Below the pieces are notes generated by a model. That model saw only the letters and a program-made list of their open reading frames with translations, made no database searches and was not told the DNA's origin. Of a DNA stretch of 52,976 nucleotides, positions 4,688 to 49,845 are shown in pieces. Each line of letters opens with the position of its first letter. The first letter of the stretch is position 1. The DNA comes from a phage. The position numbers and the translations under genes are program-made. The stretch lies in sequence record PZ049337.1. One strand, written 5' to 3'.

Positions 4688-6454
4688 TTATTGATGCGGA
4701 CCGTTCTTCTTAGTAAGTTGAACAATCTCTTTGGTTTCGAACAAGGAGTCGTCCCAAGAACGTTGAATGATTCGACCAGAGTCTGTGTCATAGTACGTCT
4801 TGAAGCCCTCTGTTTTACCACTCTTACGAGCTTTGATGGAACGAATAATAGAACAGTTTGGGTCTACTGCCTGACTATTACGCTCAAAACCAAACATACC
4901 ATGAGAATATTTAGCAGCAGCACGAGAGCCAGTAAAGTCTGACTTCTTAATACGTCCACCATCTTCATGAGGTCGCTGACCTTTTGCCACAGGGTTAAGG
5001 TGTGACAAGATATTAACATGGAACTGATATTGGTCTGCCAGCTTGGTAATGTCTGCATACAGCTTACCTAAGAAGTCGTTCTTCTCTGAGGCAGAAATCC
5101 CTTCTGATAAGTAGGTTAAGTTATCAAGAACAAACATATCAATGTCTGGACCAATCTGACGAAGAATCGTCTTTAACCCATCCCAAGTTTCATAAGGGTC
5201 TTCTCCAGCTTGCTTGCGGTCCCAAATCTCCATGTTACGAAGCATCTTCGCAGCAGTTTGACGGAACTTAGCTTCATCATATCGAGGGTCTTCACGAGTA
5301 AACGCGGGTTCCCAATATGGCAAGTTGTCGTTAAGGCCAGCCATTCGGCGTAATGTTTCCGCAGGAGTTTCCTCCATGTATGCAGTAAACACTCCCCAAT
5401 CATGCTGAACAATGTTGTGATGCACAATCTGTCGAGACAGTGTAGTCTTACCACCACCTTCTGCACCACCGATTGAGATAACTTCGGCACGACGTTGACC
5501 GAACATTAAGTCAGTCAGTTTGGGCCAAGGGTAGTCCACACCCTGTTCAACTTCGTCATCAAGCTCTTCCATAAGAAGTTCTTTGTTGACAAGTGCTGTA
5601 GGTAGAGGACGGGCAGCACGGAACACAACAGCAGATTGAGTAGCTTTAAGCAAGCCACGTTTCAAACAGTCGTTGGCATCGTTGGCAGGAAGTGTGGCAA
5701 TCATTGCACCAGGCAACAATCGACACGCTTCTTTTGCAGCTTTACGACCAGGTTCATCATCATCAAATACGATAACAACCTGCTCCCAACGTTGCTTAAT
5801 TTCTTCTGCAACTGGTGACAAACATTTGTGTACGGAATCACTTCCATCACTCAAACTAATTACAGCAAAATCCAAATCTTCATATGCACCACCACGGTTC
5901 ATAGTCTTGAGGATTTGACGCAATGCGATACAGTCTTCTTCACCTTCAGTGATGAACAATGTCTTACCGCCAATTGCTTTTGCAGCCAACCAATTGTAGG
6001 GTTCGTTGCCTTGAGTATCACCAACAGACCACATAACTTTCTTGTTCAGAAGTTTAATCTTCCAACGAACAAGTTTACCATTTTTGGTGTAGCCATGCGC
6101 CAAAGCATTTGGAGTCTTGCCATCAAACTCTGAATACAGAAGTCGGACACCAGCAGCTTTCCAAAATTCTGGTTCAATGCTGCGATGGTCTAAATCAAAC
6201 GGAGGACACGAGGTTACTTCGTCAATTTCTTCCTGAATTTCTTCTGGAGTCTTGACCTTAATTTCCGGAATATTCTCCGGATTATTGCCGTACGGATTCG
6301 GAACGAGAACGCCACATGCAAAGCAGTAACCAGAGAAGTTCTTATTACCAGCTTCATCGACATTCAACCAAACCTGTAAAGACTTGCCAGATGTGGATTT
6401 ACAGTCTGGTACATCGTGCTTAATCTTGGCAACACATTGCTTAACGTTCATCAT
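4688..6454 (-). CDS. bifunctional DNA primase/helicase (T7 gp4-like)
   Basis: N-terminal Cys4 zinc ribbon (CKSTSG...CFACG), central TOPRIM-like acidic region, Walker A GGAEGGGKTT of DnaB-type helicase. Confidence 0.8.
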   Translation of the reverse strand: MMNVKQCVAKIKHDVPDCKSTSGKSLQVWLNVDEAGNKNFSGYCFACGVLVPNPYGNNPENIPEIKVKTPEEIQEEIDEVTSCPPFDLDHRSIEPEFWKAAGVRLLYSEFDGKTPNALAHGYTKNGKLVRWKIKLLNKKVMWSVGDTQGNEPYNWLAAKAIGGKTLFITEGEEDCIALRQILKTMNRGGAYEDLDFAVISLSDGSDSVHKCLSPVAEEIKQRWEQVVIVFDDDEPGRKAAKEACRLLPGAMIATLPANDANDCLKRGLLKATQSAVVFRAARPLPTALVNKELLMEELDDEVEQGVDYPWPKLTDLMFGQRRAEVISIGGAEGGGKTTLSRQIVHHNIVQHDWGVFTAYMEETPAETLRRMAGLNDNLPYWEPAFTREDPRYDEAKFRQTAAKMLRNMEIWDRKQAGEDPYETWDGLKTILRQIGPDIDMFVLDNLTYLSEGISASEKNDFLGKLYADITKLADQYQFHVNILSHLNPVAKGQRPHEDGGRIKKSDFTGSRAAAKYSHGMFGFERNSQAVDPNCSIIRSIKARKSGKTEGFKTYYDTDSGRIIQRSWDDSLFETKEIVQLTKKNGPHQ

Positions 6455-11823: not shown

Positions 11824-12140
11824 AATGGGACTCCGTAAATTGGTTGGTTAGTTGTCCACTCGCGAGTTGCGATTTGCATGGACTTGTTTGGGCCGTGGTA
11901 GAAGTATTTCTTGACTTCCTCAAGTGTGTATTTAGCACTGCTTTCGAGAATATCTTTGAAAGTGTGCTTCCAGAACCCATCTTTCTCCGAAATTCCTACG
12001 GTAAAGTCGTTGGTGCCGTTGTACCACCAACGTCCACCAACCAGGACGAAGTGGATTGTTTCTTCCCCATCTTCCCCACTTAGAACAGACGTTAGTACAT
12101 TTCTTAATGTCAAAACTTTAGCAGAATGCTTGCGAATCAT
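11820..12140 (-). CDS. hypothetical protein (106 aa) ending ...GVPF
   Basis: ATG at 12140 with GGAGAG Shine-Dalgarno; C-terminal VPF tip. Confidence 0.5.
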   Translation of the reverse strand: MIRKHSAKVLTLRNVLTSVLSGEDGEETIHFVLVGGRWWYNGTNDFTVGISEKDGFWKHTFKDILESSAKYTLEEVKKYFYHGPNKSMQIATREWTTNQPIYGVPF

Positions 12141-12783
12141 AGGAACTCTCCAATTTTCGATTCAGTGTTTGTGACTTCTCTCTTCTCATCTTTTGGCCTC
12201 ATGAAACAGGCCACAGGGTTGCGAAAATAGCCCTATTTTAGGACTATAGCCAACCGTTTGTGTCAATTCTGGATAACTGCATTGGTGAAGGGTTACTCTC
12301 GTTAGGGTGCGATACGCTAATCACATGAGTGTCGTCGCCTTGCGGCTCAGGCGTGTCACAAAGGCTTTGCAACCCTTCCCAATACATTCACCCAAATCCC
12401 AGCGTTGGCGTAGCTGGTGGCTTGGTTTTGTGCGGATTATGCCACTCTAAGCCCTGTTTGTCCGACTTCCTCGGAGCACCAGCGGCTTGTGGCACAAACC
12501 TATTTTCGAATGACTAACATAAGCATGAGGCACAACCCTCTAATTATTCAGCCCTAACAGCTTGCTTATTTAGTACCAATTCATCCCAATACATCGACCT
12601 ATAACAAGTGAATAGCGTTTCTGCGAAGAAGTATTCTGGCCCTTTGGCCTATGTTAAAAGATAAGTGTATTTGATGGAAACATTCCATCGAAAATAACTT
12701 TGTAGAATGAGTCGAACATTCTCACACGTCTAGCGGCCGCAACGGTCTACCGAGTTACAAAGTTATTATCTGATGTTGTTTCT

Positions 12784-12800
12784 TCAATTCCAACTAATGT
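12784..12800 (-). promoter_or_regulatory. copy of recurring 17-nt motif (minus strand ACATTAGTTGGAATTGA)
   Basis: In ORF-free region 12150-13010. Confidence 0.3.
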
Positions 12801-12864
12801 TTCAGAATTATTCCAATATTCCAAACAAAAAGAATAATAAGAATAAATTAAAATAAATGAAGAA

Positions 12865-12900
12865 AGTGCTTGACACCCATTTGGCGATAAGTGTATAATG
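12865..12900 (+). promoter_or_regulatory. sigma70-type promoter on the plus (antisense) strand
   Basis: TTGACA (12870-12875), 18-nt spacer ending TG, TATAAT (12894-12899): consensus -35, extended -10; points opposite to all genes. Confidence 0.4.
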
Positions 12901-12924
12901 CATTTCTTCCCTAAGAGGTCAGAA

Positions 12925-12941
12925 TCAAATCCCACTAATGC
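12925..12941 (-). promoter_or_regulatory. copy of recurring motif, degenerate (minus strand GCATTAGTGGGATTTGA)
   Basis: Adjacent to hairpin 12949-12995. Confidence 0.25.
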
Positions 12942-13011
12942 TTCAGACGAAGTGCCGAAGGCCAATGCGAGTACAAAACCCGCTTGGCACTTCGAAGAAA
13001 CCCGCCTGGAA

Positions 13012-13248
13012 CTATAGTGCTTTCCAATCTGAATCAAACAGTTTCTTTGGTCTTGAATAAATTATCGAATTAATTCCCAAGAAAGTATGATTTCCATACT
13101 TCTTAACTTCCTGGTAAGCAAAACCATCTACCCAATCTCCGGAGTGGGTTTTAATCTTTGTAGCAAACAGGATTCGATAGTAGTGGCCGCGTGGCTGGTG
13201 GAAGAGTATATCTTCTGGCTTGATTGAGCTAATATTTAAATCACGCAT
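13012..13248 (-). CDS. hypothetical protein (78 aa)
   Basis: Minus-strand ORF, tightly packed early-gene block. Confidence 0.4.
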   Translation of the reverse strand: MRDLNISSIKPEDILFHQPRGHYYRILFATKIKTHSGDWVDGFAYQEVKKYGNHTFLGINSIIYSRPKKLFDSDWKAL

Positions 13249-19638: not shown

Positions 19639-19832
19639 TTTATTCTCCTAAGTTAAAAGAAAACTCCCGTCATAACGATTGTGGAGGTCTTGTGTTACCT
19701 TAATCCACCTTAAAGAATCAGGGAGTATGTGACACAACAAGTGCCGAAAACTACAATGATTAGCTTGGAGACATAATCTCTCTAAAATCTGTCACACAAT
19801 TTCAGCAGAATTTACAGAGATTTGGTCTTATT

Positions 19833-19849
19833 CACATGCAACTAATGAT
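19833..19849 (-). promoter_or_regulatory. copy of recurring motif (minus strand TCATTAGTTGCATGTGA)
   Basis: 195 nt upstream of gene start 19638. Confidence 0.3.
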
Positions 19850-20039
19850 AAATGAACATGCTTAATTGCAACCAATTCATCTGCCAAATAGACGAATTTA
19901 GTCACAATCAAACATGCATCATTAATTACAGGTTTACTCCCACCTTGAATGTATTTGGCACATTAAGATTGGAGCAAGCAGGTACGGAAAACCGACCATG
20001 TACAGCATAATAAAACTAATTAAATAAAGGGTTTTATCC

Positions 20040-20312
20040 CAATATTGTCACAATATTTACATGCGATGATAAAGCCTTCGCTTGGCTGGAAGCCAGTATT
20101 CATGCGGGTTGCAAGAATATTGGGTGAATATTGATACATTTATTACATGCGAAATTGGCACAAATATTGTTACAAAATTAACATGCCGGATTGGTAGACA
20201 ATTGTATCTTCGAGGTGATTAGTCCTCTAACAATTCTGCCACATTCTAACATGCCAATTTGTAGCAATATTTACATGCCATACTGTGACGCAATTGTCAC
20301 AATATTTGTTGC
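20040..20312. repeat. iteron-like array of about 25-nt direct repeats (AATATTGnnACAnnATTTACATGC)
   Basis: Copies at 20040-20065, 20126-20151, 20162-20187, 20231-20255, 20256-20279, partial 20291-20312; further isolated ACATGC boxes across 19835-20660. Confidence 0.55.
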
Positions 20313-20703
20313 TCAAAATCGGGGCGGGCTACGGGATTAGTTTCGCGGCTTTGCTCCGACTCTTCTCTTCTTTCGAATTCTGATTGAAAGAAAGAAGCAT
20401 GTCCAAAAGTTCCAATATTACCAAAGTTATCTCCCGGCTTGTGGGTGGGCCTTTATAATAGGAGATGTGGCTCAATTGTCGCTAATAGACATGCTATAGG
20501 TGAAGAACAGTTTCGAATAATATTCCTACTTCACACATGGTTGCTGGAACTTTGTCCGGCCAAAGACAGGGAGTTCAATGATTGCCACATCATTACAACA
20601 CTGTATGTTTAGTTGACATGCTGAAATGTTTCTAGAATGATTTCAACATGACATGCGGAAACCCACGAACAACGTGAGTAATACTTCTCCGTATTCTGTT
20701 ACT

Positions 20704-20720
20704 TCACATCCAACTAATGT
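20704..20720 (-). promoter_or_regulatory. copy of recurring 17-nt motif (identical to 16624-16640)
   Basis: Exact 17-mer TCACATCCAACTAATGT on plus strand. Confidence 0.35.
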
Positions 20721-20794
20721 TACAGATGGCTACAATATTGAAGCCAGCTCTAAGATTAATTGAAACAAGAAAAGGGAGCCGAAGCTCCCAAATA

Positions 20795-21031
20795 TCAGAA
20801 CGGTATCTCTGTATCAAAGTATCCAGAATTGTGTAAGAATGCGTGCAATAATACATGCGACTCTTGTTTATATTCTGCTAACAACTCTAAGAAGTCTTTA
20901 GTCTCATTCACTGTGGGACGAGATAAGTTGCTCATGTCACAGGTGTGGTGAGGATTGAAACAGTTTTCGATTTGATTGATTTGTTGAGTATTCATTGTAG
21001 TCTCCAATTTGTTATAGTCATCCTTGACCAA
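20795..21031 (-). CDS. hypothetical protein (78 aa) ending ...FDTEIPF
   Basis: Immediately downstream of the RNA polymerase gene; SSB-tip-like C-terminus. Confidence 0.45.
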   Translation of the reverse strand: MVKDDYNKLETTMNTQQINQIENCFNPHHTCDMSNLSRPTVNETKDFLELLAEYKQESHVLLHAFLHNSGYFDTEIPF

Positions 21032-21041
21032 TTAATCCTAA

Positions 21042-22982
21042 TTATTGACAGAAGTAGTAAGCGTGTTCGCTCATCAGAAGCTCTTCAGTTACGATATTCT
21101 CATGATACATCTGAATGCCACCGAGTTGCTTAGACAGATTCTCGAATTGATTGTTGGTTACGAAGATTTCAACATATGCTGCACGAATAACTTCCATCAT
21201 ACGTGGAGCATCAGCTAAGCAGCAACGGAAACAGTCATGGATTGAAGTGAAACCACGAAGACCAGCTTCTTTAGCCTTAACTGCAACAGTACGAGCAACC
21301 AACGCGTCAATACCTTGAATGTAGTTAACAACGAAGGTACGCTTGAACTCTTCTTTAGTTGGGTTGGACTCACGAATGGTCCAAGGCTTATTCTCCTGAA
21401 TCTGACCAAAGATAACACGAGTTTGAGAGTCAACACGAATGCTGAATGCCTCACAGATTTCACGAGATGGGAAGCAAGGCTTCATTACAACCTGACCATC
21501 AGTGTGCTTATAGGTGATGTACTCTTTGTTGAGTTCAACACAACGAGCAAATGCAGCATCAGCAGCTTTCTCAATGAACATGTTAATCTTAGCACCCAAT
21601 GCGTTATGGATTGCTTCTACACACAGTTCAGCAAATGCCTCAGCTTTCTCCATAGGAATCTGAAGAGATGCAGTCATGTAGGAGATAAAGTCAGAAGAAC
21701 CAGTTAATGCTGCTTTACCACCACCATATTGGATAGCCATGTATGGAGTTTTGATAAACTTACGACCAGCTTTCGGATTCAAGAATTCATCCATAATTTC
21801 AGGAGATGGTTTCATTGAAGAACGGTCTAATAACTTTAACAGTTCACGAAGAGATAACTGGTATGGGTCAGATGCTTTAGTCTCAGAATCAACCAGACCT
21901 GTTGCACGAGCCATCTCCATGTTACCAGCAATGAATGCCAGATATTGAGTACCAGAACATTTAGCATCTAAGCCAAAGCCTACACGAGAATCACACTCAC
22001 CTGTAGTCTCAAACTTGAACCAATCCAGAGCCAGACGAACATAAGTGAATGGCTTAGAAGGACGTTCAGCTTTAGGCATGTTCATCATGCGAGCAAGTGA
22101 ACCAGCTGGATTCTGAGCAACATAGGTCAAACGTTTAGCACTGCACCATTCACCACCAGAAATATCTTCCAGCTCAGCCATGAACATGTTGTATGCAATG
22201 GTAGTAGAACCATCTTCGTTAAACTTCTTAACGATGTTCTCAACATTGTGAGAATACAGGCAACGAGCAAAGTCAGATGATTGTGGGTTAGGACCAGCAC
22301 ATGCTACATGATACAGGCGACCACGGTTATCAGCAAAGTAGTCAGAATAGAGTGTATCCTGAGTCATCATTGCTACAGCATTGTTCCAAACATGGAGTTC
22401 AGTCTGGATTGCTTCTGGCATCTGCAAACCACCGTAGGTACGTTGTTCAATCATGGACTGAATGATGCGAACCATTTCAGTCTCCACATGGTACTCAGTA
22501 TCTTGCAGGAATTCGATTGCAGCTTTCAGAGTCTTGGATGGCTTAACTTTGCCACCTTTAACGAAAGGCTTGCGACGAGATTCAGATGTAACACGCTCAG
22601 TGAATGGCACTGCTGTGTCTTTGGTTGTAACCAGCTCAACCCATGTATCAGTTTGTTGGAATGACTTGTCTTCGTTCATGGTGATGAAGCCAAAGTGTTT
22701 AGCTAAACCAATGAGGTTGATAGCTGGGTCAACATAGTGCATTGATTTCAAGTCGTTGTTATAGCGGTTGGCATCAGCAATAGAAGAAGAAGCCAGTTCA
22801 ACCATTGCAATGGCTGGGACAACATCATCACGAGTGAATGACGTCATCATCTTGAAGATTGCAAGAGCAGCAATAGCACAGGTCTGAGGCTGCATATAGT
22901 TCTGTTTCTCTTTGGCACGATATACCAGAGCCGTGATAGCAGGGACAACGGATTTGATAGTTTGAGTGGTGATAGTAGTCAT
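21042..22982 (-). CDS. single-subunit DNA-directed RNA polymerase (T7-like), N-terminally short (646 aa)
   Basis: DNRGRLYHV...NPQ matches T7 DWRGRVYAV...NPQ; CSGTQY versus T7 CSGIQH; motif B RKFIKTPYMAIQYG (R-x3-K-x3-M-x3-YG); motif C IHDCF; GGAG Shine-Dalgarno before ATG 22982. T7 comparisons are from memory. Confidence 0.8.
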   Translation of the reverse strand: MTTITTQTIKSVVPAITALVYRAKEKQNYMQPQTCAIAALAIFKMMTSFTRDDVVPAIAMVELASSSIADANRYNNDLKSMHYVDPAINLIGLAKHFGFITMNEDKSFQQTDTWVELVTTKDTAVPFTERVTSESRRKPFVKGGKVKPSKTLKAAIEFLQDTEYHVETEMVRIIQSMIEQRTYGGLQMPEAIQTELHVWNNAVAMMTQDTLYSDYFADNRGRLYHVACAGPNPQSSDFARCLYSHNVENIVKKFNEDGSTTIAYNMFMAELEDISGGEWCSAKRLTYVAQNPAGSLARMMNMPKAERPSKPFTYVRLALDWFKFETTGECDSRVGFGLDAKCSGTQYLAFIAGNMEMARATGLVDSETKASDPYQLSLRELLKLLDRSSMKPSPEIMDEFLNPKAGRKFIKTPYMAIQYGGGKAALTGSSDFISYMTASLQIPMEKAEAFAELCVEAIHNALGAKINMFIEKAADAAFARCVELNKEYITYKHTDGQVVMKPCFPSREICEAFSIRVDSQTRVIFGQIQENKPWTIRESNPTKEEFKRTFVVNYIQGIDALVARTVAVKAKEAGLRGFTSIHDCFRCCLADAPRMMEVIRAAYVEIFVTNNQFENLSKQLGGIQMYHENIVTEELLMSEHAYYFCQ

Positions 22983-23049
22983 TTGTAAGTCTCCAAGATT
23001 GTGTATGATTTAACTGAAACGGATTATAATAGCGTAGCCATTACACAAT

Positions 23050-23066
23050 TCACTTCCAACTAATAT
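23050..23066 (-). promoter_or_regulatory. copy of recurring 17-nt motif (minus strand ATATTAGTTGGAAGTGA)
   Basis: 68 nt upstream of the RNA polymerase ATG; a TATAAT-like hexamer lies about 25 nt downstream of it. Confidence 0.35.
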
Positions 23067-23170
23067 CACAAACCTGTGCCATTGTTAGCACAGCACGGAG
23101 ACTTTGACCTTGACTCATAAGCGAAGCGCCTAACTTGGTGTTATCATTAAGCCGATAGGCTGTAGAAAAA

Positions 23171-23229
23171 GTTGGGGTAGGGACCGTATTTTAAGTCCGA
23201 TAGGACGTTGGGCTTCCCCTCCCCGCGAC
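23171..23229 (-). terminator. possible intrinsic terminator after the late/nrdB transcription unit
   Basis: Minus strand GGGGAGGGG...CCCTACCCC stem (one mismatch, one G-U) followed by AACTTTTTC; loop is long, so uncertain. Confidence 0.3.
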
Positions 23230-23242
23230 CTCAAAAATAAAA

Positions 23243-23470
23243 ATTAATATTGCCACAATTCGAGTCTCATTAATATTGAAACAATTTGAGTCTCATTAAT
23301 TTTGTAGCAATATTAAAATAAAAAAAAATTATAAAAAAAAAATTATTTCATAGTCAGACAACTGTTCGAAAAAATTTCGGCGAGATACAGCTGACCGACC
23401 ATGTACCATTTGGTTTTGAACTTTACGCATTCCTAATATTACTCTTAATATTGTAGCAATATTGGGAATA
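23243..23470. repeat. AT-rich repeat region (24-nt direct repeat, A-tracts, TGTAGCAATATT boxes)
   Basis: CACAATTCGAGTCTCATTAATATT (23254-23277) and AACAATTTGAGTCTCATTAATTTT (23280-23303); poly-A runs 23318-23345; TGTAGCAATATT at 23298 and 23452, related to the 20040-20312 array. Confidence 0.5.
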
Positions 23471-23552
23471 AATAAATATTTAATTTACTTGTTTTATTCT
23501 AGCTCAAAGAGAAACGACGCTAACGCATCGAATCTCTTCTCACATATAATCG

Positions 23553-24671
23553 TTAAAGCTCAAATCCGCCCAGAGCATTGGTGTCAACTTCGGAGTCAAT
23601 CTGCCCGACAAGGTACGAACTAATCTCCGTTTCTTGTGGAGCAACCTGTACAGCATCCGAGTTCAGCCATGCGTTAATCCAAGGAATCGGGTTAGTTGCA
23701 CCTTTGAATGGGGCATCTAATCCAACTGCTTGCATACGAATATTCGTAATATATTCCACATATCCGCACAGAATTTGCTTGTTTAAGCCAATCATGGAGC
23801 CATCTTTGAACAAATAATCGGCCCAATCTTTCTCTTGTTGGGCAGCATCTTCGAACAATTTCTGGCATTCTTCACGACATTCTTGAGCAATTTCTCCCAT
23901 TTCTGGGTCATCTTTACCACTCGCAAGAATATTCAACATGTGCTGAGTTCCGGTCAAATGGAGTGCTTCATCTCGTGCAATCAGTCGAATAATCTTGGCA
24001 TTTCCTTCCATTAACTTGCGTTCAGCGAAGGCAAATGAGCAAGCAAAACTAACATAAAAGCGGATTGCTTCTAGTGCATTGATAGACATGAGGCATAAAT
24101 AGAGCTTCTTCTTCAACTCACGCAGACTAATTTCGTGACCAGCATGGTTCCCTTCTCCGAACAACTGCCATAATGCAGTGAGTTGTTGAAGTTCGTCATA
24201 ATACTGGGAGATGCCAATTGCTCGTGCTTTGATATGTTCGTTAGTTACGATTTCATCAAAGATAATGCTTGGGTCTGTAACGATGTTTCGAATAATGTGG
24301 GTGTAAGAACGTGAATGGATAGTCTCAGAGAAAGACCAAGTTTCAATCCAAGTTTCAAGCTCAGGAATGCTCACGATTGGAAGCAAAACTGTGTTAGGTC
24401 CACGTCCCTGAATGGAGTCCAGAAGGATTTGATAGCGCAAATTACTGGTGAAAATGTGCTGCTCATTTGGTGGGAGCTTCTGGTAATCAATACGGTCTTG
24501 TGAAACATCTACCTCCTCCGGTCGCCAGAAGAATGACAATTGTTTCTCAATCAACTTCTCGAATATGCCATACTTCTGTTGGTCATAGCGAGCAACGTTG
24601 ACGTTCTGACCAAAGAACATTGGTTCTAATAGTTGGTTATTCTTGGTTTGTGAAAAGGTAGTGTAAGACAT
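23553..24671 (-). CDS. nrdB: ribonucleotide reductase class Ia small subunit
   Basis: 372 aa; N-terminus [34 protein letters not shown]... closely resembles E. coli NrdB as I recall it; [17 protein letters not shown] (radical Tyr) and RDEALH iron ligands present. Confidence 0.9.
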
Positions 24672-39359: not shown

Positions 39360-39715
39360 TCAAGGAAGTTCGATTCCAAAACAAATGCAAACACATGGTG
39401 CATGAGCATCAAGTTGCCGTTGTATTTCATTTGCATAGTGCGTGGAGTAACTTCGACACCATCAATGGTTGCCATGCACACTACACGTTTAATTAATTCT
39501 GTTACTTCGTTACTCGTCCCACCTTGCTGCATTAAATAAATAATGTCTGCAAAGTTATATTTATTCTCAACGAACGGGAAGATTGAAGTTCCGAGTTTCT
39601 GAACAAGCTCGACTTGAAGGTCAAGAGCTTGGCTGGCACCCAATTGACGAGTACCAACCAAGACAACATCACCAGAGTCGGCTTGTAACTCGCGTTGACG
39701 AAGTTCACAAGCCAT
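39257..39715 (-). CDS. tail assembly chaperone
   Basis: 152 aa between tube and tape measure; contains the slippery site. Confidence 0.55.
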   Translation of the reverse strand: MACELRQRELQADSGDVVLVGTRQLGASQALDLQVELVQKLGTSIFPFVENKYNFADIIYLMQQGGTSNEVTELIKRVVCMATIDGVEVTPRTMQMKYNGNLMLMHHVFAFVLESNFLDFFKQGLELNERRRLEAVEASKMAEQKNSSPETI

Positions 39716-39730
39716 GCTCTTACCTTAATG

Positions 39731-47621: not shown

Positions 47622-49640
47622 TTACATCCATGCCGAGTAGTTGGCACTTGGGCCGGAGAATTCGATTGCAACCATATCTGAAACGTTATCGACACAATCG
47701 TCGTGTCCAGTACCACTACCCAAAGAAGTGAATCCAAGTATTTCACGTCTAACGTGGTCAATGTGTTCATGACCAGCAGGGAAGAATATCCTCTTTTGGG
47801 AGAAATATGGGATTGCGTTAAGGAATCGAGTTACCTTGTCATTACCATTAATCCCATCACGAGGTAATGGTAAAACTCGGACACTCCCATCTCTGATAAA
47901 TTGTTGGTTCAAGAATTGCCCAGCAGACTTGTCTTCCATGTACAGTGCACGAGGAATACAACCTACACACTTCAAGTCCAACCTGTTGCATTTGTTCCAG
48001 AAGTCGATAATAGCAGTCTTGAGTTCTGGAGTTTCAAACTTACCAAGCATAATATCTAAACAATAAACATCACGCTCTTTAGTCACGCCCCAATGCTTAA
48101 GGACCGAATAATCAGAATAGGACTTGGCAGTTGATGCTGTATCCGCTGTAATAAAACTTCTGACTACGCGACTTCTGTCGAAAACGTCTGGTTCATACTC
48201 TTGCCACCAATCTTCTTTGATAAGGCCGTGGCCTTGTGCAGATGGGTCGCCAGCATACTGTGAATTGTATGTGTATGGGTTAGACTCTTTCATTGCCTCC
48301 AGAGATTCTAAACTCTTACGTGAAGGCCATAATGCAGACTTCTCTTCCTTCCTGTTCAAATTATACAGAATGGGAATAGCATGAGTGTAGTTCTGCTTCT
48401 TGATTAGTTTATCATACCATTCAGCACTCCCAACACCTTTCTCAATAATCGCTGGGATATTGAGATAATGGTATTTGTCAGAAGAGCCACCACGGAGTAT
48501 GTAACCAACTAAATCCTGGTCATGAACTCGCTGCATGATGATAACCATTGGAGTACGAGAGCACTTAATTTGGTTTCCACGGGAATCGGTTATGCACCCA
48601 TCATTGGCAAGACGTGACATAAAGGTGTTATCAAATCGGTCGTTGATTTCTGCTCGAACTGTATCCGAGTAGGCATCTTTTGGTTTGATAACGTCATCCA
48701 CCACAAAACAGCCGGAGTAGTTTGCGACAAGAAGTCCAGCACCTTTACCAGTTAGCTTACCACCAGTAGGTACTGCGTGCATAACTCCAGCTTTGGTCGT
48801 ACCCCAGCGTTCAAGTGAACGTTTGTTAGGGTCGATTCTCACCTTCGGGAATATGCGTTGGAACAGCGGGTCCAACATTACTGCACGGATGTAACCACTA
48901 GATTCCAATACAACGTCTTCTGCATAGGAGGTGATAATGTTGTGGCTAGATTCATTGTGGCAAAATGAATACAGTGGCAGTGCAATACTCATAAGCTGGG
49001 TCTTAGAGTGTCGTGGTGGAATGGTCACTATTAAGCGGTCAATCTCACCGTCAACAACCTTCTGGCCAACACTGAATATTACATCGTGAAAGTCTTGTGC
49101 TTGAAATGGAAATCCCATCTGAATATGGAACTGCCATTTACCAAAGGCTTCGAAACTTTTCATCAAGATTTTGCGAACACGTTCTGCAACCTTGGCAGGG
49201 ATTACAGTTGGGTCCACGTTATGTGGGTCATGCAGAATCTTGTCTACAAGTTCGTCGGTGTTATCATGCTCAGAGTTTGGCTCCTCCAATGTGGAACCTG
49301 CAATACGGTCAGTAACACCTGCTTGAATACCTTTCTTCAACTCATCTGCATAGGCAGTCGAGTCTTTCTTGTCGCCAGAGCGAAGACGCTCAAGTTGTGC
49401 TCTGAAAACGGAACGCAATACAGCATCGTTTTCCAGACCCTGGCCTTCTAACTCTGCTTGAATTTGTTCTTCATAGCTGTCAACTATTGCAGTGTTTTCT
49501 GAAATATATCGACGGAGCAATGGCAAAGATAGAATACAGAATCTTTCTCTTGAGACTTTTAATACGTCACCGTAGTGTTTGGCAAGATACGAGGCTACTG
49601 TATCATTAAACTCCGGTCCGAGGTCATCAGTCTTTGACAT
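47622..49640 (-). CDS. terminase large subunit
   Basis: ATPase region (TIPPRHSKT, Walker-B-like FVVDDV) and C-terminal nuclease-like GHDDCVDNVSD; ATG 49640 preferred over the listed GTG start at 49667. Confidence 0.75.
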   Translation of the reverse strand: MSKTDDLGPEFNDTVASYLAKHYGDVLKVSRERFCILSLPLLRRYISENTAIVDSYEEQIQAELEGQGLENDAVLRSVFRAQLERLRSGDKKDSTAYADELKKGIQAGVTDRIAGSTLEEPNSEHDNTDELVDKILHDPHNVDPTVIPAKVAERVRKILMKSFEAFGKWQFHIQMGFPFQAQDFHDVIFSVGQKVVDGEIDRLIVTIPPRHSKTQLMSIALPLYSFCHNESSHNIITSYAEDVVLESSGYIRAVMLDPLFQRIFPKVRIDPNKRSLERWGTTKAGVMHAVPTGGKLTGKGAGLLVANYSGCFVVDDVIKPKDAYSDTVRAEINDRFDNTFMSRLANDGCITDSRGNQIKCSRTPMVIIMQRVHDQDLVGYILRGGSSDKYHYLNIPAIIEKGVGSAEWYDKLIKKQNYTHAIPILYNLNRKEEKSALWPSRKSLESLEAMKESNPYTYNSQYAGDPSAQGHGLIKEDWWQEYEPDVFDRSRVVRSFITADTASTAKSYSDYSVLKHWGVTKERDVYCLDIMLGKFETPELKTAIIDFWNKCNRLDLKCVGCIPRALYMEDKSAGQFLNQQFIRDGSVRVLPLPRDGINGNDKVTRFLNAIPYFSQKRIFFPAGHEHIDHVRREILGFTSLGSGTGHDDCVDNVSDMVAIEFSGPSANYSAWM

Positions 49641-49659
49641 TGATTCGTTCTCTTTGTTT

Positions 49660-49845
49660 TTAATCACAATCCACTAATGGCTGAGTTTGCACAGGATTGA
49701 TGCGAATGATGTTGCCCAAACTAGAATCAGCTTTTAAAATCAGTCGATTTAGTGGCATGAATGAATCACAGATAGGACATTGTTGGGTGATGAAATCATC
49801 CTCTGCCACCTCATAATGGCAGTTAGGACATTGTATTGTGCGCAT
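49660..49845 (-). CDS. zinc-ribbon small protein
   Basis: CPNCH...CPICD double CxxC; directly upstream of terminase. Confidence 0.4.
   Translation of the reverse strand: MRTIQCPNCHYEVAEDDFITQQCPICDSFMPLNRLILKADSSLGNIIRINPVQTQPLVDCD
49664..49680 (-). promoter_or_regulatory. copy of recurring motif (minus strand CCATTAGTGGATTGTGA)
   Basis: 24 nt upstream of terminase ATG 49640. Confidence 0.3.

Follow-up and report, generated by a model that had tools for sequence, protein, structure and literature searches.

The genomes of phages in the family Chaseviridae are linear and carry direct terminal repeats (DTRs) about 3 kb in length (PMC12842549; PMC6753284; PMC8762354). The DTRs of the family span about 2.3-3.2 kb and contain the RNA polymerase gene. 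For phages with long exact repeats, it is largely unexplained how two boundaries that lie kilobases apart are recognized and how the DNA between them is duplicated. In T7, formation of the genome ends starts at the concatemer junction, where a pausing complex of polymerase and lysozyme recruits the terminase (PMC3276506). The T7 record has a 160-bp terminal repeat, followed by an array of CCTAAAG words with a 13-bp period (175-341) and then by phiOL (405); related repeats occur at 39620-39725, before the terminal repeat and downstream of phiOR (39229). We know of no established function for these flanking repeats. In SPP1 (pacL and pacR, with A-tracts) and in lambda (the R sites of cosB), binding boxes are located on both sides of the cut.

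The window, by which we mean the whole stretch of 52,976 nucleotides analyzed here (sequence record PZ049337.1), is 90-94% identical to Carltongylesvirus phages (phiEcoM-GJ1-like, Chaseviridae). The entire gene set, judged by all long open reading frames (ORFs) of the window, lies on the minus strand, hereafter the coding strand, and features are followed in this direction with descending positions. A gap of 570 bp separates the gene for the ribonucleotide reductase small subunit (nrdB; 23553-24671, minus strand) from that for a single-subunit RNA polymerase (21042-22982, minus strand), and this gap is the site of an AT-rich repeat region at 23243-23470 (region A). As judged from comparison with relatives, region A is a real and conserved unique flank of the chasevirus terminal-repeat junction, with a partner on the other flank, an array at 20 kb (region B). 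The gap contains no minus-strand ORF of at least 40 aa, no tRNA and no Rfam match. No tRNA was found in the whole window, and Rfam covariance models returned nothing at the gathering score; between 19600 and 23600 the sole match was a miRNA at chance level (E = 0.37). A structured RNA or tRNA reading of the region was dropped on these grounds.

The boundaries of the DTR in the window were transferred by homology from the ends of relatives, as given by their records or by PhageTerm. The left ends of Mangalitsa, 4HA13, JL1, Myduc, Y2 and PM1, which represent five genera, fall within a single 6-nt alignment window (23194-23199), and in all six phages they lie inside the conserved word CCAACGTCC-TAT^CG^GAC^TTAAATACGGTCCC. 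The right boundaries, again in six of six, are found where a purine-rich tract ends, ...GAAGAGAAG^AGTC^GGAS^. The annotated repeat of Mangalitsa (3234 bp, PhageTerm) aligns with its first base at 23194 and its last at 20362, and it holds about 400 bp more than the window, including a 5'-extended annotated RNA polymerase CDS. The repeats of the others measure 3120 bp (4HA13) and 3202 bp (Myduc), both by PhageTerm, 2995 bp (JL1, from a record with both copies), 2608 bp (Y2) and 2665 bp (PM1). Both boundary words are intact in the window, the left one (CCAACGTCCTATCGGAC^TTAAA(A)TACGGTCCC) at 23211-23180 and the right one (GAAGAGAAGAGTCGGAG) at 20370-20354, and therefore the repeat would run from 23194 down to about 20353-20362. 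The putative left physical end, which is also the left DTR boundary, is accordingly placed at 23194-23199 (minus strand) by homology only, and the putative right boundary (GAAGAGAAG^AGTC^GGAG^) at 20353-20362 (minus strand), likewise by homology. The predicted DTR (20353-23194, minus strand) would be about 2.83-2.84 kb long, as deduced from its homology to the DTRs of relatives (PMC12842549). Within it lie a copy of a promoter-like motif (23064-23049), the RNA polymerase gene (22982-21042), a 66-aa ORF, a terminator (20789-20774) and a further motif copy (20718-20703); the polymerase gene is thus found between the predicted boundaries. At both edges, the coding strand has a purine-rich tract before the boundary and a TCGGAS word at its end.

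Region A stops 49 nt outside the left boundary and the 20-kb array starts 56 nt outside the right boundary. Since the ends of the relatives map to 23194-23199 and 20353-20362, the two arrays bracket the DTR. The first-pass annotation had described the polymerase gene as bracketed by related repeats. The arrays do flank this gene and are indeed related through a shared box, an AT-rich arm and a GGTCGGT motif, but the bracketed unit is the DTR, with an array about 50 nt outside each boundary.

One relative, PYps23T, disagrees with this placement. Its repeat is 2339 bp long, and both of its boundaries fall inside the motif ATTAGTTGGA^NGTGAA, at window positions 23055 and 20709. These ends were determined by ligation-PCR and by sequencing of the product and of phage DNA, and PYps23T is the only relative with a readable experimental method. 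The motif has about a dozen matches with up to three mismatches (10 with up to two), on the coding strand only and many of them just upstream of genes, and in SA91KD it is annotated as a putative phiEcoM-GJ1 promoter. The boundary position shared by the six relatives appears more likely than that of PYps23T. Contigs from the public runs SRR21752587 and SRR32962181 are 100% identical to the window, and one of these (Logan) contigs spans exactly 23240-20340, which is the repeat plus 46 nt and 14-22 nt. Contig ends were dropped as a proxy for physical ends; other contigs break in the T-run or in the 26-bp repeats described below, and the breaks are therefore attributed to assembly difficulty or population variation. 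Many records of the genus Carltongylesvirus open at arbitrary points.

Nowhere is the genome richer in AT than in region A, which contains the lowest-GC windows at every scale tested, with the genome minimum of 8.3% GC at 23293-23352. The long A-tracts reported in the first-pass annotation are an A9 (23320-23328) and an A10 (23333-23342), the only A/T runs of at least 7 in 52,976 bases; on the coding strand, TTTTTT occurs once in the 49 kb outside the two flanks. Intrinsic bending, for which the first pass had suggested a test, was dropped in the form of phased A-tracts, given that the AA/TT periodicity of 10-11 bp in the region reaches only the 20th-80th genome percentile. The 24-nt direct repeat was recovered where it had been reported (23254-23277 and 23280-23303, plus strand). 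It belongs to a 26-bp tandem repeat at 23243-23311 with 2.7 copies and 86% matches, which is the top tandem repeat of the window (TRF score 96).

On the coding strand, a terminator-like hairpin (CGATGCGTTAGCGTCG then TTTCTCTTTG; 23515-23530, minus strand) is located just past the nrdB stop. It is conserved in relatives; the late operon ends here and the non-coding junction region begins. It is followed by a 37-nt AT-rich arm (23464-23500, plus strand), which on the plus strand starts with GGGAAT, and by box 1, a perfect AATATTG-N3-CAATATT at 23447-23463 to which no strand is assigned. Taken together, the arm and box 1 (54 nt) pair with 20004-20057 as an inverted repeat that is 70% complementary. 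Box 1 and the GGTCGGT motif (GTACATGGTCGGTCAGCTGTATC; 23384-23406, minus strand) are separated by about 43 nt of AT-rich DNA, and the motif lies 63 nt downstream from where box 1 starts. Runs of T6, T10 and T9 with a TATAAT word then span 23380-23319. Apart from the T10 and T9 runs around TATAAT (23319-23346, minus strand), the genome has no long homopolymers; these runs form its lowest-GC stretch and overlap with a weak sigma-70-like site, CTGACT-18-TATAAT (23357-23328). The next elements are three degenerate boxes at 26-bp intervals (23314-23298, 23288-23272 and 23262-23246, minus strand), which alternate with AATGAGACTC and correspond to the 26-bp tandem repeat. The cut-proximal unit (23195-23245, minus strand) consists of the T-rich AATTTTTATTTTT, the G-rich GGGGAGGGGAAGCCCAAC (23224-23207) and the palindrome GTCC-TATC-GGAC (23206-23195). 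Just inside the repeat, a very conserved stretch of 60 nt includes a second palindrome, AGCC-TATC-GGCT. A hairpin at 23093-23074 and a copy of ATTAGTTGGAAGTGAA at 23064-23049 come next, in the order noted in the first pass, and the polymerase start codon stands at 22982. A large hairpin across the left end (GGGGAGGGG...CCCTACCCC plus the T-run) was also considered and rejected; the consensus fold did not support it, its arms do not covary in Y2, PM1 and Myduc, and around the left end only the two small palindromes are kept.

The sequence TGTAGCAATATT occurs exactly at 23303, 23452 and 20260, i.e. at two positions in region A and one in the 20-kb array, as had been claimed. With up to one mismatch it has seven matches against 0.46 expected, a number reached in none of 100 shuffles, and six of the seven fall inside 20127-20271 or 23246-23463. 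The box is better described as the 17-bp AATATTG-N3-CAATATT, in which two self-complementary AATATT hexamers are placed one helical turn apart. Its perfect form is found in the window only at 23447-23463 and 20041-20057. When up to three mismatches are allowed, there are 19 matches genome-wide against 4.5 expected, 11 of which belong to the two arrays or to a neighboring site at 20723. Overall, boxes are essentially restricted to the flanks of the terminal repeat.

The partner array, region B (20041-20306, minus strand), has its first box 56 nt beyond the boundary and its last, the perfect one, at 20057-20041; most boxes have GCATGT in front. After the perfect box come GGGA, a 37-nt AT-rich arm and a GGTCGGT motif (19997-19981), the last lying within a twin of the region A motif that occupies 20003-19981, 60 nt downstream of the last region B box. 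The two twins share the exact 13-mer GTACATGGTCGGT (23406-23394 and 20003-19991), which lies 60-63 nt downstream of each perfect box; this 13-mer was missing from the first-pass annotation. Region B contains about 12 co-directional GCATGT elements with the directional consensus aattt-GCATGT-AA-TTGTGACAA-ATT, and copies are found about 340 nt into the repeat. Since these directional elements reach into the repeat, the 20-kb array is more than a mirror of region A. It is syntenic across genera, with GCATG at about +84, +108, +176, +212, +257 and +298 from the boundary and GGTCGGT at about +365. Common to both flanks are the box, the AT-rich arm and a module composed of the box, 39-46 nt of AT-rich DNA and GGTCGGT. 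The module is present once per flank, in direct orientation and with a spacing of 56-63 nt in nearly all genera, the exceptions to the spacing being 4HA13 and PM1 on the region A side. Each flank also has the box with GGGA and the 37-nt arm, the two copies being oppositely oriented. A mirror symmetry between the flanks around the repeat was dropped; local alignment of flank A with the reverse complement of flank B recovers the box alone, and such alignments are significant in two of six phages and overall no better than those in direct orientation.

The junction was compared with those of flopper, JL1, PYps23T, 4HA13, Faunus, Y2, PM1, Myduc and several uncultured relatives, and the RNA polymerases of the compared relatives are 66-98% identical to that of the window. 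The repeats are conserved, with boxes and layout kept in at least five genera of the Cleopatravirinae (Carltongylesvirus, Sabourvirus, Loessnervirus, Suwonvirus and Myducvirus), and the layout persists while the surrounding sequence diverges and small ORFs insert in some genera. The elements kept at the junction are one or two GGTCGGTCAACTGTACC motifs, TATAAT with a T-run, and the G-rich tract with its TATC palindrome; the GGTCGGT motif is kept in every Cleopatravirinae relative checked for it. A perfect box 1 occupies the same place in flopper, JL1, PYps23T, 4HA13 and Y2. It is absent in Myduc and L028 and degenerate in PM1; region A of PM1 does have a perfect box, but within its repeat array. 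TATAAT is followed by a T-run in most relatives, with a run length of 9 to 25, and the -35 part of the sigma-70-like site is not conserved. From the last box to the palindrome, the distance is constant at 57-61 nt across genera. On the other flank, five of the seven mapped genomes have their first box 46-61 nt beyond the boundary, and Y2 and Myduc have no box (within 2-3 mismatches) that close to the right boundary.

Compensatory change is seen in the stem of the TATC palindrome, which reads CTCCC-TATC-GGGAG in PM1 and Myduc; Faunus has TCCC/GGGA. Close relatives have between 2.7 and about 5 copies of the 26-bp unit, and the word between the 26-bp boxes is lineage-specific (AACGGCTC in PM1, AAGTCGTAAG in Myduc and GATTCG in Y2). 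In L036 the block of box, T-rich tract and G-rich tract is duplicated in tandem, and the block therefore behaves as a unit. The cut-proximal boxes are absent in L028 and L026. In the distant chasevirus ZPAH14 the boxes are absent; its sole analogous-looking features are a GGTCGAC word and a G-rich tract ahead of the left end. The flopper record has two bare "repeat_region" tags in this region.

Because region A lies just outside the left edge of the DTR, it is most likely part of the genome-end signal. We propose that it is a cis-acting element of the concatemer junction for end formation or DTR duplication, with a layout like that of T7 (phiOR-SRR-TR-SRL-phiOL, where SRR and SRL are the repeats on either side of the terminal repeat), and we would give this proposal about an even chance. 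In replicating concatemers region A would abut the left DTR boundary, and in virions it would be the last unique sequence before the right-hand repeat; it would act in cis, at the level of DNA, in the making of genome ends. The boxes are candidate binding sites of a protein, probably a dimer or multimer, and the far-flank boxes, about 50 nt past the right boundary, may let this factor mark or join both edges of the 2.8-kb repeat. The cuts would be made at the TCGGAS sites, which are conserved and purine-rich. The long T-runs could serve as an easily melted or a rigid spacer, and the distal module of box, about 43 nt of AT-rich DNA and GGTCGGT may support local DNA synthesis for duplication of the repeat. 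The first-pass annotation had suggested a bipartite origin or packaging signal, and a signal of packaging or origin type is still the best-supported class of explanation.

The box-binding factor might be the terminase or an accessory factor. The large terminase subunit is recognizable and is extended by 170 aa at its N terminus, and the start of its gene overlaps with a zinc-ribbon ORF of 61 aa; neither the extension nor the zinc-ribbon ORF has an informative family match. PHROGs and Pfam gave no small terminase subunit among the ORFs beside the large terminase, and a small terminase or other DNA-binding candidate at this location was dropped since no informative family hits were obtained.

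The observations behind the end-formation proposal are the position of region A relative to the ends of relatives, its conservation and the restriction of the boxes to the flanks. The proposal fits best because of the flank-restricted boxes, their fixed distance from the boundary, the conserved boundary-proximal block and the parallel with T7. The boundaries of PYps23T (23055 and 20709) count against it, as do the lack of cut-proximal boxes in L028 and L026, the lack of the box in ZPAH14 and the non-significant mirror symmetry of the flanks. The transfer of the boundaries by homology, the failure to tie a small terminase subunit or other DNA-binding protein to the boxes, and the lack of an established role for the comparable T7 repeats weigh on the same side. 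The cut sites have the same polarity while the arrays lie on opposite sides of them, and therefore no single fixed geometry from box to cut can apply to both. A more elaborate form of the proposal is that one box-binding factor, perhaps the N-extended terminase or the 61-aa zinc-ribbon protein, joins both arrays and loops out the 2.8-kb repeat, that both cuts are made in one synaptic complex, and that the twin modules fire T7-style priming which duplicates the repeat; taken as a whole, this scenario seems to us rather improbable.

The modules could have a different role, as twin secondary origins or replication promoters of the T7 type, like phiOR and phiOL, although we think this unlikely. 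The box followed by G would be a promoter for the phage polymerase, the AT-rich DNA would provide the unwinding and the zone of RNA-to-DNA transition, and TGGTCGGTC on the displaced coding strand would be the start site of a gp4-type primase, with the T-runs and 26-bp repeats as accessories. That the modules keep a fixed spacing (56-63 nt) and are directly oriented on the two flanks in almost all genera checked agrees with this, and phiOL and phiOR of T7 occupy the same positions relative to the terminal repeat. No other DNA of the genome melts as easily as this region. The primase-helicase is a homolog of T7 gp4 (E about 1e-29), the T7 primase recognizes GTC-containing sites such as TGGTC, and the GTC-rich word sits on the strand that transcription would displace. 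In all genera the region B box has GGGA, GTGGA or GTAGA directly after it, and in the form AATATT-GTGACA-ATATT^GGGA it is similar to the SP6 promoter, ATTTAG-GTGACA-CTATA^G. However, the box is essentially confined to the flanks, whereas the replication promoters of T7 share the general promoter consensus, and it is a different motif, ATTAGTTGGANGTGAA, that is spread before gene clusters. The box is palindromic, unlike promoters of the T7 type, and in region A the G-start is on the non-coding strand while GGTCGGT is on the opposite side of the box. GC skew shows no inflection near the region and was dropped as origin evidence; it is uninformative because it is monotonic, with all genes on one strand. 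No initiator protein was found, and a possible primary-origin candidate at 12.8 kb was judged better than the modules of regions A and B.

Control of transcription was weighed in the same way, with the boxes as operators at which a phage or host regulator would control the polymerase and early genes, and TATAAT with the T-runs as a promoter or UP-like element directed into the repeat. Arrays of palindromic 17-bp sites are typical of operators, and here the polymerase gene and the early gene block are found downstream of the arrays. The sigma-70-like site at 23357-23328, whose TATAAT is kept in most relatives, and the dozen or so co-directional GCATGT elements of region B could be accommodated as well. 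Sigma-70-like sites, however, are not enriched in the window (10 against 11.2 expected) and their -35 part is not conserved, and sigma-70 promoters in the arrays were not favored for want of enrichment. Region A cannot control the first polymerase copy that enters the cell, because the left copy in virion DNA has no region A upstream, and the operator reading is weakened by this and by the absence of sigma-70 enrichment. A terminator-like hairpin, a T-run and about 260 nt stand between the boxes and the polymerase start codon, and the distance that is fixed is the one to the repeat boundary, not to the gene start, which favors a function at DNA ends. No DNA-binding protein, helix-turn-helix or other regulator, could be linked to the boxes. 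A regulator shared by both arrays, which the first-pass annotation had raised, is possible, and no protein candidate for it was found. We consider transcription control an unlikely main function of region A. A functionless, slippage-prone AT-rich spacer, with boxes common to the 20-kb array from an old duplication, would account for the variation in 26-bp copy number (2.7 to about 5) and T-run length (9 to 25) among near-identical phages, for the assemblies that break in the region and for the small ORFs inserted at the junction in some genera, but it is very unlikely because of the conservation, in that box arms, GGTCGGT, the G-rich tract and their spacings are kept in five genera whose polymerases are only 66-76% identical (protein), the perfect box is kept on both flanks and the stem of the cut-site palindrome shows compensatory change.

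Chaseviruses are a compact case of long exact repeats, with conserved boundaries that are each flanked by the same box and composite module. Their replication proteins are T7-like, and methods developed for T7 should therefore transfer to them. If the boxes are a recognition code, they would provide handles for packaging assays, for phage engineering and for correct calling of genome ends. Several of these phages are biocontrol candidates. If the boxes are operators or origins, they would still be the first defined regulatory DNA element of the Chaseviridae, whose promoters are unidentified according to the ICTV profile (PMC12842549). If looping and synapsis take place as outlined above, the flanks would hold a cis code for making long exact terminal repeats, a process that is poorly understood in genomes of the T5, SPO1 and chasevirus types.

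Among the systems with which the locus can be compared, SPP1 and lambda have in common with it short repeated boxes and A/T tracts around a defined terminase cut site. They differ in that they use a recognizable small terminase and have ends that are cohesive or headful-permuted, whereas here the repeats are long and exact, two cut sites lie 2.8 kb apart and the A-tracts are not helically phased. A pac site that depends on a small terminase (SPP1/P22 type) was set aside, as no small subunit was found and the relatives have exact DTRs and not permuted ends. The comparison with T7 extends further, in that short related repeats are present on both unique flanks adjoining the terminal repeat and a discrete element is located just past each array, at the positions of phiOL and phiOR. 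The repeat of T7, however, is 160 bp long and non-coding, whereas the one here is about 2.8 kb long and contains the polymerase gene; the repeated unit of T7 is a 7-bp word, whereas the 17-bp unit here is a palindromic box that is absent inside the repeat. No homolog of gp18 (the small terminase), T7-type promoter or CJ pause signal is recognizable here, and the virion is that of a myovirus. The parallel with T7 is a resemblance in layout, homology of mechanism being unproven. For the Chaseviridae themselves, the publications and records found report that the repeat exists and how long it is, and in this accessible material on chasevirus repeats no description of the flanking boxes or modules was found; the repeat is already known, and the boxes and modules appear to be undescribed. 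The window also matches the DTRs of Mangalitsa, 4HA13, Myduc, vB_EamM-Y2, PM1 and PYps23T, which have homologous boundary sequences and the same gene content in the repeat.

For Yersinia phage PYps23T (MW147598.1; L004/L005), a terminal repeat of 2339 bp has been reported from experiment. It starts and ends at the same position within two copies of ATTAGTTGGA|NGTGAA, a motif annotated in another record as a putative phage promoter, and its boundaries correspond to 23055 and 20709 in the window. These boundaries conflict with six other end determinations: the PCR may have jumped from one motif copy to the other, or the phage may have a genuine second type of end. Two public runs hold contigs that match the window at 100% identity, L034 (Logan SRR32962181_239) and L033 (Logan SRR21752587_64225), so there are reads from which this phage's physical ends could be determined. 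One such identical contig (L034/L033) spans exactly 23240-20340, that is, the terminal repeat inferred from homology, extended by 46 nt at one edge and by 14-22 nt at the opposite edge.

The left flank varies among close relatives. In the regions homologous to 23243-23346 of near-identical phages (L038, L022, L035 and L036), the T-run ranges in length from 9 to 25 and the 26-bp units number from 2.7 to about 5; metagenomic contig ends are frequent in this homologous region. In L036, a block consisting of the box (AATATTG-N3-CAATATT), a T-rich segment and a G-rich segment is duplicated in tandem beside the cut site. Away from the two flanks, T-runs on the coding strand are strongly avoided, with a single TTTTTT in the remaining 49 kb versus 10 overlapping occurrences within the 1.1 kb of the flanks. 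In some relatives an additional small ORF separates the polymerase gene from the promoter-like motif, and certain records annotate it as fused to the polymerase, about 705 aa in total. Sabourvirus and Faunus have a different insertion, within the left-flank region (region A): an ORF (MKP(N/D)Y...) that is conserved and about 35 aa long. Relatives with one or the other small ORF are L002 (Mangalitsa, 4700-4890), L006 (JL1), L008 (4HA13, 194-361), L009 (4HA13) and L024 (Faunus).

Around the right boundary of the repeat, the non-coding ~900 bp within 19800-20700 contain about 12 co-directional GCATGT elements on the minus strand (consensus aattt-GCATGT-AA-TTGTGACAA-ATT), which lie on both sides of the boundary and whose positions are syntenic in five genera. 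The highly conserved word CCTATTATAAAGGCCCACCCACAAGCCGGGA (within 20425-20482, minus strand) lies inside the repeat, ~90 nt ahead of this boundary, and overlaps a sigma-70-like site, GCGACA-16-TATTAT (20482-20455, minus strand). It is a candidate early promoter that each end of the genome would carry. The genome maximum of 10-11 bp AA/TT periodicity is found at 19791-20046 (windows ranked first and fourth), just downstream of the partner array's module rather than in the 23243-23470 repeats, and the DNA of this segment may be intrinsically curved.

At the terminase locus (47622-49845), the minus-strand gene encodes a large terminase of 681 aa, in which the ATPase domain is preceded by ~170 aa of N-terminal extension, and the terminase start codon is overlapped by a 61-aa zinc-ribbon ORF (49660-49845, minus strand). 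Searches of the ORFs beside the large terminase against PHROGs and Pfam gave no recognisable small terminase subunit.

An Rfam search of 12140-13020 gave no match. Within this interval, two promoter-like motifs on the minus strand (12939-12924 and 12798-12783) enclose 60 nt of AT-rich DNA, exceeded in AT content by only one other place in the genome, and are followed on that strand by ~650 nt of ORF-free DNA. The layout at 12780-12960 recalls the primary origin of T7, with its tandem promoters and AT-rich region.
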